Assembly (NCBI GenBank): GCA_040289515.1
Contig: PSLI01000020.1
Span: 1-35,986, forward strand
Direction: 5' to 3'
Length of the DNA: 35,986 bases
From: Candidatus Sysuimicrobiota bacterium
Lineage (GTDB): Bacteria; Sysuimicrobiota; Sysuimicrobiia; Sysuimicrobiales; Sysuimicrobiaceae
The position numbers were made by a program. Below are positions 21,001-24,000 of the stretch, piece by piece. Within the stretch, counting starts at the first letter, position 1, and each line of letters begins with the position of its first letter.

Positions 21001-24000
21001 CTTCGGGCTGCACCATCGGTGGAAGCGGTACGCGGCCCGGCTGGCCACCGTGCCCCCCGGCGGGGCGGCCCTGGACGTGTGCTGCGGCACCGGAGACCTC
21101 GCGTTCCTGCTGTGGGAGCAGGCGGGACCGGGGGGGCGTACCTTGGGCGTGGATTTCGCCGCCCCCATGGTGGCCCTGGCGCGGCGGCGGGCCCGCGGCC
21201 GGAGCGGCTTGTGGTTCGTGCAGGCGGACGCGGAAGCCCTGCCGTTCCCGGAGGGGTGTTTCCACGCGGTCACGGTGGGCTTCGGGGTGCGGAACGTGGC
21301 GCGCCTGGAGCGGGCTCTGGCGGAGATGTACCGGGTGCTGCGGCCCGCAGGACGCCTGGTGGTGCTGGAGTTCAGCCAGCCCCGCAACCGCCTGTTCGCA
21401 GCCCTGTACGACTTCTACTCGTACACCGCCGTTCCGTGGCTGGGCCGCCGGCTGTCTCGTCATCCCGACGCCTACTGGTACCTGCCCACCTCCATCCGCG
21501 CCTGGTCGGACCCCGAGACGTTCGGCCACCTGCTGGCCGAAGCTGGGTTCTGTCGGGTCCGCCACCATAGCCTTCTGGCCGGCGCGGTGGCGGTGCACGT
21601 GGCGGAAAAACCATCCCGGGAGCGCCAGGAGCTGCCGGGAGGCGGGGCGAACACCGTCCCGAGCGGGCTTTCGGGTGAGGTGACGCGGTGAGCGAGCCGC
21701 ACGAGCAGACGGGCGTGTACCGCCTGGGCGAGGAGCTGCCCGGCGTGTTCGAGATCCTCCGGGAGGTGTACCGGGCCCTCCAGGAGCGCGGGTACAGCCC
21801 CAAGGATCAGCTGGTGGGGTACCTGATCTCGGGCGACCCCACGTACATCACCAGCCACCGGGGCGCGCGGTCCTTGATCCGTAAGGTGGAGCGGGACCGG
21901 ATCCTGGAGGAACTGGTGCGCTTCTACGCAGAGCAGCGCATCCGCCCTGCCCTCGAGGGGTAGGGACATGCGCGGGGCGAGGAAGGCCATCCAAGAGGAG
22001 CGGTCCGGCGGTGGGTGAGGTCCTGCTGGTGCGCGGCGGGTGCCGGCTGGAGGGTGCGGTGAAGGTGGCCGGTGCCGTGAACACCGTGCTGCCCATCATG
22101 GCGGCGGCGGCCCTGGCGGCGGACGTGTCCATCATCGAGAACGTCCCCCGCTGCCGCGACGTGCAGGTCATGGCAGATATCCTGCGTTGCCTGGGATGCG
22201 AGGTGCACCTGGCGGACGGTGGCCGCCTAGCGGTGGACGCCCGCTGCCTCATGAGCACGCACGCACCCGCGGAGCTGTGCGGCCGGATCCGGGGCTCGTA
22301 CTACGCGGCGGGGATGCTGCTGGGCCGTGTGGGGCAGTTCGAGGTGGGGCTCCCCGGGGGCGACTCCATCGGAGGGCGGCCCGTGGACTTCCACCTGAAG
22401 GGGTTTTCCGCCCTGGGGGCCCAGGTGGTTACCGAGCGCGGGTACATGGTGGGCCGCGCCAGGCACCTCCGGGGCGTGGAGTTCTTGGTCCCTCGCCGCA
22501 GCGTGGGGACCACCATCAACTTGATGCTGGCCGCGGTGCTGGCGGAGGGGACCACGGTGCTGCGCAACGCGGCCCTGGAGCCCGAGGTCACCGACACCGC
22601 CGTGTTTTTGAACCTCATGGGGGCCCGCGTCCGGGGAGCGGGAACGCCCACCGTGGTGGTGGAGGGCGTCCGCCGGCTGCACGGGGCCCGGTACGCGGTG
22701 ATCCCGGACCGCATCGAGGCGGGCACGTACCTGGTGGCGGGGGCGGCCACCGGAGGGGACGTGGAGGTGGACGCCCTGATCCCCGAGCACGTGACCGCCC
22801 TGCTGAGCAAGCTGGCGGAGGCGGGTTGCCAGGTGGACGCCAACACGGACCGGGTGCGAGTGAGGGCCCCCCGACGCCTTCGGGCCGTGGACATTGACAC
22901 TGCGCCGTTTCCGGGGTTCGCGACGGACCTGCACCCGCCCTTCGTGGCGCTGCTGGCTACCGCGGAGGGGGAGGCGGTGGTGCGGGAGACCATCTACGAC
23001 GGCCGGATGGGCTACGCCTACGAGCTGGTGAAGATGGGAGCTGACATCCGGGTGGACGGCAATACCGCGTACGTGCGGGGCGTGGAACGGCTCACAGGGG
23101 CCCCCGTCCAGGCCCTGGACATCCGGGCCGGCGCCGCGGTGGTGATCGCGGGGCTGGTGGCAGAGGGGGAGACGCGCATCGTTGGCGTGGAGCACCTGGA
23201 CCGCAAGTACGAGGGGCTGGAGCGCAAGCTCCAGGCCGTGGGCGCGGAGGTGCGGCGGGTCTCCGAGACGGAGGTGGCCGTGGCGGGCACTTGAGGGCGC
23301 CGCCGCGGTGTGCGAGAATCGCAGGGGGCCGCGGTCGGCCTTCATTCCAGTCCAGGAGCGAAGCGGTGTCCTCGGGCGGACCGGAAGTCACGCGGGTGGT
23401 GCGGATCCCCGCCGACGGCATGAGGGTGGCTCCCGTGGAGCAGCTGGTGGAGGTGCTCCAGCGGCTGCCGGGCGGTCAGATCTTGGTCACCAGCATCGAG
23501 AACGTCCTGAACTGGGCCCGGGCTCGGTCCATCTGGCCGCTGACCTTCGGCTTAGCCTGCTGCGCCATGGAGATGATGCAGGCCATGGGCACGCGGTTCG
23601 ACCTGGACCGCTTCGGCGTCATCCCCCGGGCCACCCCCCGACAGGCGGACCTCATCATCGTGGCGGGTCGGTGCACCATCAAGATGGCGCCTGTGGTCCG
23701 GCGGCTGTGGGAACAGATGCCGGAGCCCAAGTACGTGATCAGCATGGGCAGCTGTGCCACCTGCGGGGGGCCGTTTTACTACGACAACTACTCCATCCTG
23801 AAGGGGATCGACACCGTGATCCCCGTGGACGTGTACGTGCCGGGTTGCCCGCCCCGCCCGGAGGCCCTCATCGAAGGGGTGCTGAAGCTCCAGGAGAAGA
23901 TCCAGAGGGAACGTCGCCTCACGCGCCGGCTGCAGGAGGCGGCGTCCGCGGGAGCGTAGGATGCGGTCCCTGCGTACCGAGGAGCTCATCCTGAACATGG

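Follow-up and report, generated by a model that had tools for sequence, protein, structure and literature searches.

A conserved ireB-murA gene pair in Candidatus Sysuimicrobiota suggests a PASTA kinase-IreB-MurA switch in a diderm phylum, with an altered MurA active site in one family

The window analysed here is a stretch of 35,986 nucleotides of contig PSLI01000020.1 from a Candidatus Sysuimicrobiota bacterium of the family Sysuimicrobiaceae. It carries ireB (reoM) immediately upstream of murA, each the sole copy in the genome, between a methyltransferase gene and a group of nuo-like genes. The features of the locus are as follows.

20942..21691, + strand: ubiE/menG-type methyltransferase gene (TIGR01934 above cut-off; start position approximate)
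21677..21682, + strand: SD-like site of ireB, from the sequence
21688..21963, + strand: ireB/reoM, 91 aa (PF06135 and NF003997, single match)
21709..21711, + strand: codon of Thr8, the equivalent of the ReoM/IreB Thr7 phosphosite (aligned to 6tif)
21835..21837, + strand: codon of Asp50, the equivalent of E. faecalis IreB D50 (gap-free alignment to 5us5)
21996..22000, + strand: SD-like site of murA, in the 47-nt spacer, from the sequence
22011..23294, + strand: murA, 427 aa (TIGR01072 and AlphaFold model)
22077..22079, + strand: codon of Val23, replacing conserved Lys22 (E. coli numbering; alignment)
22362..22364, + strand: codon of Asp118, replacing Cys115 (E. coli numbering; alignment)
23205..23207, + strand: codon of Lys399, replacing conserved Gly398 beside PEP-binding Arg397; candidate replacement lysine (alignment)
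23396..26231, + strand: downstream nuoB-nuoD-nuoI-nuoC-like genes, outside the circuit

The two genes share a strand and are separated by 47 nt, with an SD-like site before each; the sequence also shows a 4-nt overlap between the methyltransferase stop and the start of ireB. A ubiE/menG-type gene stands 5′ of ireB in all 12 Sysuimicrobiaceae loci. The only terminator-like match on the + strand of the locus is inside murA, and the total of 2 such matches compares with a shuffle mean of 1.9; a promoter scan of the locus found no promoter. In this family the nuo-like genes are probably co-transcribed with murA. The initial annotation spoke of ireB being fused into an operon with murA. We find an operon-like gene pair and no gene fusion, but the placement itself holds widely: ireB is directly 5′ of murA in every one of the 50 Sysuimicrobiota loci that were fetched, and the 73 of 81 sampled genomes in which murA was found, full or partial, are the same 73 that carry ireB immediately upstream. 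The alaS-ruvX-DUF1292-mltG locus, said to lack ireB, indeed has no room for it, with alaS ending 11 nt before ruvX. The ireB-murA pair is thus real and typical of Ca. Sysuimicrobiota.

The assignment of the small protein as IreB is clear at the profile level, with 103.8 bits against a cut-off of 25 for PF06135 (E 5.6e-30), 107.5 against 91 for NF003997, and E 6.6e-22 against Listeria ReoM (6tif). Its Thr8 aligns with Listeria ReoM Thr7, so that the phospho-acceptor threonine is kept as had been claimed; however, the T-G-[VI]-F motif described around it reads T-G-[VI]-Y in this IreB and in all 12 genomes of the family. Thr8 and Asp50 equivalents are invariant in 49 of 49 aligned IreB proteins. 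Residues R62, R66, R70 and D50 are kept, and the equivalent of ReoM Arg57, a residue conserved in 57% of the family at large, is Ser. In E. faecalis, D50 of IreB is needed for MurAB binding, as shown by D50A data (PMC12077105).

MurA is equally well identified (TIGR01072, 485 bits against a cut-off of 393), and its AlphaFold model has a pLDDT of 95 and superposes on closed MurA structures with TM 0.95-0.96 and an rmsd of about 1 Å. Against the MurZ/MurAB equivalog PRK12830 (NF009470) it scores 485 with a cut-off of 552, and an assignment as MurAB by profile was rejected; 9 loci of the order score 489-530, all below 552. Its most unusual feature, absent from the initial annotation, is the active site, which differs from that of other MurA proteins. 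Lys22 and Cys115 are the two residues proposed as the MurA general acid, and the sole MurA of Sysuimicrobiaceae carries K22V, C115D and G398K (E. coli numbering) in 12 of 12 genomes. Among the 109 complete comparison loci, Lys is found at position 22 throughout the rest of the order (39/39) and throughout the outgroup (70/70), and Gly at position 398 in 39/39 and 68/68, respectively; L279, L264, L214 and L215 were excluded from these tallies because they are truncated or misaligned at those columns. Asp115 also occurs in 2 of the 39 loci from the rest of the order, and Asp for Cys115 is a known, naturally fosfomycin-insensitive type. The remaining catalytic residues N23, D49, R91, R120, S162, G164, D231, D305, R331, R371 and R397 are kept in all 12 genomes. 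Overall, the family retains 23 of the 26 key positions, with one L-to-I change as in relatives and one A/G in a single genome. Sequencing error behind V23 and K399 was rejected, as 12 genomes of 3 genera share both with synonymous codon variation, AAG and AAA both being in use for Lys399.

V23 and K399 always co-occur except in one V/G sequence, P0004. We rejected P0004 as a true V22/G398 intermediate, since its sequence follows one parent up to a point between residues 189 and 207 and the other parent beyond it; as a two-parent mosaic, either chimera or recombinant, it was not used when the covariation was assessed. The covariation of K22V and G398K itself has no statistical weight because it reflects a single evolutionary event, and no independent V22/K398 origin was found among 120 homologues listed, 80 loci from GTDB and 80 from metagenomes; these sets are biased towards relatives, and no motif scan of the whole collection was made. 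We suggest that the new lysine at position 398 may well supply the lost Lys22 amine near PEP. The papers retrieved state no distance between Lys399 and the Lys22 site. The competing reading, to which we give somewhat less credence, is that an Asp115 enzyme merely tolerates the loss of Lys22, with Lys398 serving a structural or thermoadaptive role in place of a catalytic one. The role of Lys22 as general acid is disputed, and a deep scan in E. coli recovered K22F, K22I, K22N and K22T as viable (PMC9842644), so that Lys22 loss may need no substitute; the family MurA also has other fixed changes (A87, Y329 and M333). Against this, all 36 Asp115 enzymes among the 80 metagenome MurA loci keep both K22 and G398, and G398 in the E. 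coli scan is buried, tolerates only G/T and is among the least tolerant positions, which argues that a lysine there needs the space vacated by Lys22.

We next consider how IreB could act on this enzyme. The predicted IreB-MurA complex scores 0.87, where the best of 3 controls scores 0.01; the complex-score mark is reached by 116 of 157 solved and 2 of 215 mismatched pairs, a rough guide here given our own alignments and a dimeric partner. At least 86% of contacts recur between runs, and the partner pLDDT is 81. The modelled interface takes in IreB D50 and MurA 198, 259 and 280, which match the suppressor sites N197D of Listeria and E259A and D280Y of pneumococcus. The equivalent of Listeria S262 (residue 263 here) is absent from the named contacts, and in pneumococcus no suppression came from substitutions at 190, 192 and 195, even though the model interface includes 191-195. 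Six interface residues (D195, A210, G211, T212, I231 and E259) show no variation across the order (51/51 loci) or among Bacillota MurA proteins linked to ireB (10/10), and most of them vary in 60 unlinked MurA proteins, a conservation confounded by kinship. The surfaces used in the predicted complex are those that genetics has mapped in Firmicutes. The pass of the complex may reflect family likeness, and an AlphaFold3 model of the same kind has already been published.

The initial annotation proposed a PrkA-ReoM-MurA circuit, with ReoM as the PASTA-kinase substrate that in Gram-positives triggers MurA proteolysis. Of this, the link between PASTA kinase, IreB and MurA outside the Bacillota is well supported by gene order, the conserved phosphosite and interface, and the complex prediction; the proteolysis is doubtful. 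ReoY (PF08864) was found in 0 of 5 genomes, with the control matching in B. subtilis, McsB in 0 of 5 over cut-off, and no second MurA paralogue (MurZ) was found, each genome having one murA. These missing parts make direct inhibition, as by IreB in Enterococcus (PMC12077105), the likelier mode. It is still conceivable, though we think it unlikely, that unphosphorylated IreB delivers MurA to ClpCP with neither ReoY nor a MurZ paralogue. Such control is what ReoM is established to exert in four genera, and because ReoY occurs only in Bacilli, other lineages may do without it. A ClpC-type ATPase with two Clp_N repeats and UVR is present together with ClpP, the latter recognised by a sequence motif only, which makes proteolysis possible. 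However, Listeria needs both ReoY and MurZ, pneumococcus has IreB and shows no ClpP-dependent turnover of MurA or MurZ, and at the N197 site the MurA here has Val in place of Asn.

The kinase of the proposed switch is intact. Exactly one Hanks kinase was found, with 3 PASTA domains and intact motifs, and a PASTA kinase match is present in 79 of 81 genomes. Its locus resembles the actinobacterial fhaA-fhaB-pstP-rodA-pbpA-pknB operon, the order being the same in G001 and G061 and complete with a membrane-anchored PP2C. In contrast, PP2C is cleanly missing in the 3 Sysuimicrobiaceae genomes examined, including the one studied here, and the whole fha-rodA-pbpA block before the kinase is gone in 4 of 4 genomes examined from f2-f4. 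For our own genome the reported lack of PP2C was borne out by profile searches and by a home-built profile run on all six-frame ORFs (best E 0.09). For the phylum at large, said to mostly lack PrpC, PP2C (NF033484) was not found in 58 of 81 genomes and is present in 23, so that its loss is patchy and secondary; nor are the matches mostly weak, with family f5 having them in 18 of 18 genomes (best E 2.5e-55 to 2.7e-70). The most likely history is that the kinase locus had PP2C ancestrally and that several losses followed. Where PrpC is absent, IreB might bind MurA with no working phospho-switch, as a constitutive partner or stabiliser. The 58 genomes in which PP2C was not found, an eroding kinase locus in which PbpA has also lost its motifs, and the lack of a GpsB activator (PF05103, 0 of 5 genomes over cut-off, with 3 weak matches of E 0.001-0.009) speak for this. 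We consider it quite improbable, since an N-terminus that otherwise varies retains its Thr in 51/51 loci, whether PP2C is present or not, the kinase is intact and occurs in nearly all genomes, and a calcineurin-like phosphoesterase, present in 77 of 81 genomes including this one, could stand in for PP2C.

The sequence evidence also indicates that the Sysuimicrobiaceae MurA is very probably active with a rebuilt active site, since the family keeps an intact peptidoglycan pathway, a search for an AmgK bypass found none and the gene is under purifying selection. The dcw and mreBC-mrdA-rodA clusters are complete, and the catalytic motifs of FtsI and MrdA and the MurB motifs are intact. The murA dN/dS is 0.10-0.26 in the family and 0.06-0.19 in a sister family. 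A hidden second canonical murA was looked for and not found, the second profile match being aroA-like. It is highly improbable that this MurA is a pseudoenzyme retained for its partnership with IreB, with UDP-MurNAc coming from elsewhere. In favour of that reading, K22V has been published as a mutation that inactivates the enzyme, the E. coli scan recovered neither C115D nor G398K, and the PbpA of this genome lacks its motifs. Against it, there is a single murA in 12 of 12 genomes (one rated 100% complete), its other catalytic residues are invariant, MurB and the remaining pathway are intact, AmgK was found in 0 of 3 Sysuimicrobiaceae genomes, and MurU gave no match over cut-off in an insensitive test that no control passed either.

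The circuit had been presented as appearing in a diderm. Outer-membrane marker genes are present (Omp85 in 73 of 81 genomes, LpxC in 5 of 5, and neighbouring lpx/lpt/tamB-like genes recognised by eye only); however, the arrangement is not unique, for the ireB-murA pair also occurs in 5 of 5 Omp85-bearing Bacillota genomes tested, and IreB in 61 of 61 genomes from one class of diderm Bacillota. In the IreB tree as in the MurA tree, Sysuimicrobiota is monophyletic (SH-aLRT 94 and 100) and divides along the same main line. The MurA of the Omp85-bearing Bacillota cassette and that of Sysuimicrobiota form one well-supported clade (99-100) in both MurA trees, which are quick trees on a biased sample. 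This cassette, which we did not find in the literature searched, has the same gene order in Limnochordia and other Omp85-bearing Bacillota and its MurA proteins all keep K22, C115 and G398; in 4 of 4 genomes checked the murA of the cassette is a second copy. Limnochordia often have an additional ireB, and of the 30 ireB loci fetched, 22 are at alaS.

Among known systems, the Listeria PrkA-ReoM-MurA-ClpCP circuit (PMC7286690, PMC8959180, bioRxiv 10.1101/2024.04.02.587704) shares the IreB-family Thr7, PASTA kinase, MurA, ClpC and ClpP, as well as a predicted contact at the N197-equivalent position. It differs in that ireB here precedes murA, the Listeria-type position being the alaS-ruvX locus, that ReoY, the MurZ paralogue, GpsB and, in most genomes, PrpC were not found, and that the host is a diderm outside the Bacillota. 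The E. faecalis IreK-IreB-MurAB (PMC12077105) and S. pneumoniae StkP-IreB-MurZ (bioRxiv 10.1101/2023.03.26.534294) systems share the D50 loop interface, have an E259 and D280 surface that is also conserved here, and do not need ReoY; their target is one of two paralogues, whereas the present target is the only MurA of its genome and scores below the cut-off of the MurAB equivalog. Natural Asp115-type MurA variants, and the engineered C115D/C116D structures 3v4t and 6q0a, share Asp at the catalytic cysteine; unlike the Sysuimicrobiaceae enzymes, the 36 others seen among the metagenome loci retain Lys22 and Gly398.

Taken as a whole, we favour a stripped-down PASTA kinase-IreB-MurA switch, with a probability of roughly 0.55. 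By gene order, IreB and MurA would be made together from one transcript, and the unphosphorylated IreB dimer would dock, as modelled, via its S-G-D-P loop on a MurA surface away from the active site. Given the missing parts of the proteolysis route, IreB most likely restrains MurA by binding, as with E. faecalis MurAB and pneumococcal MurZ, and not by ReoY/MurZ-assisted ClpCP proteolysis. The single PASTA kinase would, by homology, phosphorylate Thr8 and free MurA. Without PrpC, the switch might conceivably be reset as both proteins are newly made together and the old ones diluted, or a phosphatase of another type than PP2C might act. As for the enzyme, Asp would have replaced Cys115 first, followed by Lys22 to Val and Gly398 to Lys; the sister enzymes P0011 and P0012, with Asp115 and K22/G398, supply the evolutionary intermediate. 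The full combination of a single essential MurA with Lys22 and Cys115 not in their usual form, Lys398 replacing Lys22, co-expressed IreB and a PrpC-free switch reset by synthesis is put forward tentatively.

Control of MurA by ReoM/IreB has so far been described only in Bacillota. A version with one regulator and one enzyme that spans an uncultivated phylum and lacks ReoY and MurZ suggests that the system is built around direct binding of IreB to MurA, with proteolysis as an add-on. A natural sole MurA with Val22, Asp115 and Lys398 makes the disputed role of Lys22 testable, and the Sysuimicrobiaceae enzyme is in this sense a natural test of how an antibiotic target works.

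The ireB-murA pair was recognized from profile matches to two adjacent genes:

21688-21963, same strand as murA: IreB/ReoM, 91 aa
22011-23294, same strand as ireB: MurA, 427 aa

Sequence reading places a Shine-Dalgarno-like site ahead of each gene, 47 nt between them, and the start of ireB over the stop of a ubiE-type gene. Both are present in one copy in the window's own genome, G000 (rated 96.7% complete). By MurA identity the nearest named relatives, Ca. Tepidifontimicrobium (94%) and Ca. Sysuimicrobium (81%), indicate that the window belongs to Ca. Sysuimicrobiota (CSP1-3) and that its family, f1, is Sysuimicrobiaceae; the available text of PMC11604079 gives the family Sysuimicrobiaceae three genera. 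An IreB match was found in 81 of 94 Sysuimicrobiota genomes. Among 81 sampled genomes, 73 contain full or partial murA and the identical 73 contain ireB, the two invariably sharing contig and strand and their profile matches lying 12-115 nt apart, which confirms the adjacency reported in the initial annotation. The remaining 8 lack both genes, as expected where a contig is missing. Order tallies take in two unpublished genomes, G007 and G072 (loci L042 and L013), on which no claim solely depends. The phospho-acceptor Thr, also described as conserved, is preserved at the IreB N-terminus in all 50 fetched loci; Thr8 of the window protein aligns with Listeria Thr7, the only phosphosite of ReoM in the accessible part of PMC7286690. 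The motif proposed around it, T-G-[VI]-F, is instead T-G-[VI]-Y in the window's family, and the usual alaS-ruvX-DUF1292-mltG locus is indeed present without ireB. We regard this variant of the PASTA kinase-IreB-MurA circuit, phylum-wide in Sysuimicrobiota, as real and new. Literature searches covering few subscription journals found no paper on IreB/ReoM in Sysuimicrobiota (including the accessible part of PMC11962464) or, among sources other than bioRxiv supplements, on an ireB-murA operon.

Upstream of the pair, the S10-spc-alpha ribosomal operon continues into ecfA1-ecfA2-ecfT-like genes, truA and tRNA-Met (86-18564; tRNA at 18488-18564). Since truA lies within the fetched upstream flank in 28 of 50 loci, ireB-murA may, on gene order, be attached to a growth-linked locus. 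The stretch between the tRNA and ubiE (19051-20517) encodes a nucleotidyltransferase resembling MntA, though below cut-off, and a protein of 282 aa with a possible signal peptide, which had no family match and no match in 50 related loci; this segment is possibly a tRNA-linked insertion. Downstream of murA (23396-26231) lies an incomplete nuo set whose gene order, B-D-I-C, is unusual. nuoB-nuoD occupy this place in 10 of 11 Sysuimicrobiaceae loci, the 11th stopping at a contig end, and in none of the fetched loci of other families. Two small minus-strand ORFs at 27207-28276 (133 and 171 aa) have no Pfam or NCBIfam match.

The proposal of a diderm circuit stands in that Omp85 is matched in 73 of 81 Sysuimicrobiota genomes and LpxC in 5 of 5. 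However, the host type is not unique and the proposal is less striking than first put, since IreB occurs in 61/61 genomes of the class containing a Limnochordia locus, described as diderm in the accessible text of PMC11456536. Among the 30 ireB loci retrieved for this class, ireB precedes murA in 7 and comes after alaS in 22, with 1 unplaced. Many of its genomes (loci L217-L246) encode IreB twice, once at alaS and once ahead of a second murA, and in the IreB tree the sequences from these two settings fall into separate groups. The phylum containing an Armatimonadota locus yielded no IreB match in 121 genomes. ireB is also upstream of murA in 10 of 70 outgroup murA loci, and outgroup genomes with the pair have Omp85 (5 of 5 tested) and a further murA (4 of 4); the cassette is thus an extra in deep Bacillota, whereas it is the sole copy in Sysuimicrobiota. 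In quick trees, Sysuimicrobiota MurA forms one clade (support 100) nested in a well-supported Bacillota group that includes the cassette enzymes, with Armatimonadota MurA branching outside. The shared clade and gene order make the cassette common to Sysuimicrobiota and deep Bacillota, and its acquisition by transfer from Bacillota is plausible.

A PASTA-kinase match is present in 79 of 81 genomes, and in G000 the single Hanks kinase carries three PASTA domains and its motifs are intact. Four tests found no PP2C in G000, in agreement with the initial annotation. Its wider statement that the phylum mostly lacks PrpC is right, as NF033484 (PP2C) matches 23 of 81 genomes in the order (16 of 54 high-quality genomes; 6 above cut-off). 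All 18 genomes of family f5 have a strong match; in 16 of them, and in G001 from the window's family, PP2C and the kinase match share a contig and are no more than 5 kb apart. G001 and G061 share the order fhaA-fhaB-PP2C-rodA-pbpA-kinase; PP2C alone is missing from this block in G000, G004 and G008, and the entire block from four genomes of f2-f4. Judged from gene content, PP2C absence is most likely repeated loss and not the ancestral state, and the phosphatase angle is less striking than proposed. The IreB Thr is kept both with and without PP2C. A candidate protein phosphatase or histidinol-phosphate phosphatase is a calcineurin-like phosphoesterase (L177:1462-2190, G000 contig C53) found in 77 of 81 genomes; placed after hisF-hisI-like genes, it may be metabolic. 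A second PP2C lies beside a short (~330 aa) kinase, apart from the PASTA locus, in G023, G027, G057 and several f5 genomes. Next to the PASTA kinase, a PbpA-like protein (L051:10262-11575, G000 contig C5) is missing all three transpeptidase motifs, while FtsI and MrdA retain theirs.

We put the probability that IreB restrains MurA through direct inhibition at roughly 0.55. The predicted complex of MurA with an IreB dimer scored 0.87 (best control 0.01). Among solved pairs, 116 of 157 attain the mark, against 2 of 215 mismatched ones, figures that apply only roughly here; runs shared at least 86% of contacts, with partner pLDDT 81. This prediction supports binding, and the high score may also reflect family likeness. 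Predicted contacts include IreB D50, required in E. faecalis for MurAB binding and inhibition (accessible text of PMC12077105), and MurA 198, 259 and 280; converted through numbering offsets, these three positions are the sites of Listeria MurA N197D (PMC8959180, in part) and pneumococcal MurZ E259A and D280Y (bioRxiv 2023.03.26.534294, in part). Counting against the modelled interface, pneumococcal substitutions at 190-195 had no effect in the accessible text of the latter, and the named contacts do not include the Listeria S262 site. Six contact residues are invariant in 51/51 order loci and 10/10 cassette enzymes, kin that are not independent; the majority of the six are variable across 60 unlinked MurA. 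That IreB directs MurA to proteolysis, as originally suggested, is doubtful: ClpC and ClpP are both present, but 5 genomes gave no match over cut-off for ReoY, McsB or GpsB, no MurZ paralogue was found in Sysuimicrobiota genomes, and Listeria MurA degradation needs ReoY and MurZ (bioRxiv 2024.04.02.587704, accessible text). The missing ReoY and MurZ and the modelled D50 interface favour direct inhibition.

Compared with solved structures, the window MurA has Val for Lys22, Asp for Cys115 and Lys for Gly398 (E. coli numbering). All three occur in 12 of 12 Sysuimicrobiaceae genomes, none of which has another murA. Elsewhere, Lys22 is retained in 39/39 other order loci and 70/70 outgroup loci, and Gly398 in 39/39 and in the 68/68 outgroup loci reaching that column. 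Residues 22/398 among 120 homologues listed are K/G in 109 and V/K in 9, with 1 fragment and 1 V/G (P0004), which was rejected as a two-parent mosaic. Metagenomes contributed 80 loci: K/G in 78, of which 36 have Asp115, the remaining 2 being truncated or misaligned. The sister sequences P0011 and P0012 (Asp115 with K22/G398) branch just outside the V/K clade, which suggests that Asp115 arose before Val22/Lys398. In loci L044 and L045 (genus g19, f5), Cys115 changed to Asp independently and the loop is remodelled, while K22 and G398 are retained.

According to the accessible text of an E. coli deep scan (PMC9842644), the residues tolerated at K22 were limited to F, I, N and T; T alone was tolerated at G398, whose exposure is 2.7%, and no substitution at C115, so that neither V22, D115 nor K398 came up as a single change. 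K22V serves as an inactive MurA mutant in the accessible part of bioRxiv 2024.04.02.587704. A literature search without the original K22 and structure papers, which could bear on the claim, found no natural K22V/G398K MurA. On sequence grounds the Sysuimicrobiaceae enzyme is probably active. All remaining catalytic residues are invariant, the MurA fold is intact in the predicted model, and dN/dS is 0.10-0.26 for 10 Sysuimicrobiaceae murA versus 0.06-0.19 for 9 of a sister family. Neither the dcw nor the elongasome cluster lacks a gene, the motifs of FtsI, MrdA and MurB are intact, and AmgK was not found in 3 of 3 Sysuimicrobiaceae genomes examined. In MurB of 5/5 genomes (L168-L172), Cys takes the place of the catalytic Ser, a known variant. 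Arg397, immediately before position 398, and Lys22 are both annotated as PEP-binding; because it adjoins Arg397, Lys398 could take over the position of the lost Lys22 amine, a reading drawn from one evolutionary event. Alternatively, loss of Lys22 may need no replacement, as some K22 substitutions are viable in E. coli. The main added interest lies in this rebuilt active site in an apparently essential sole MurA.
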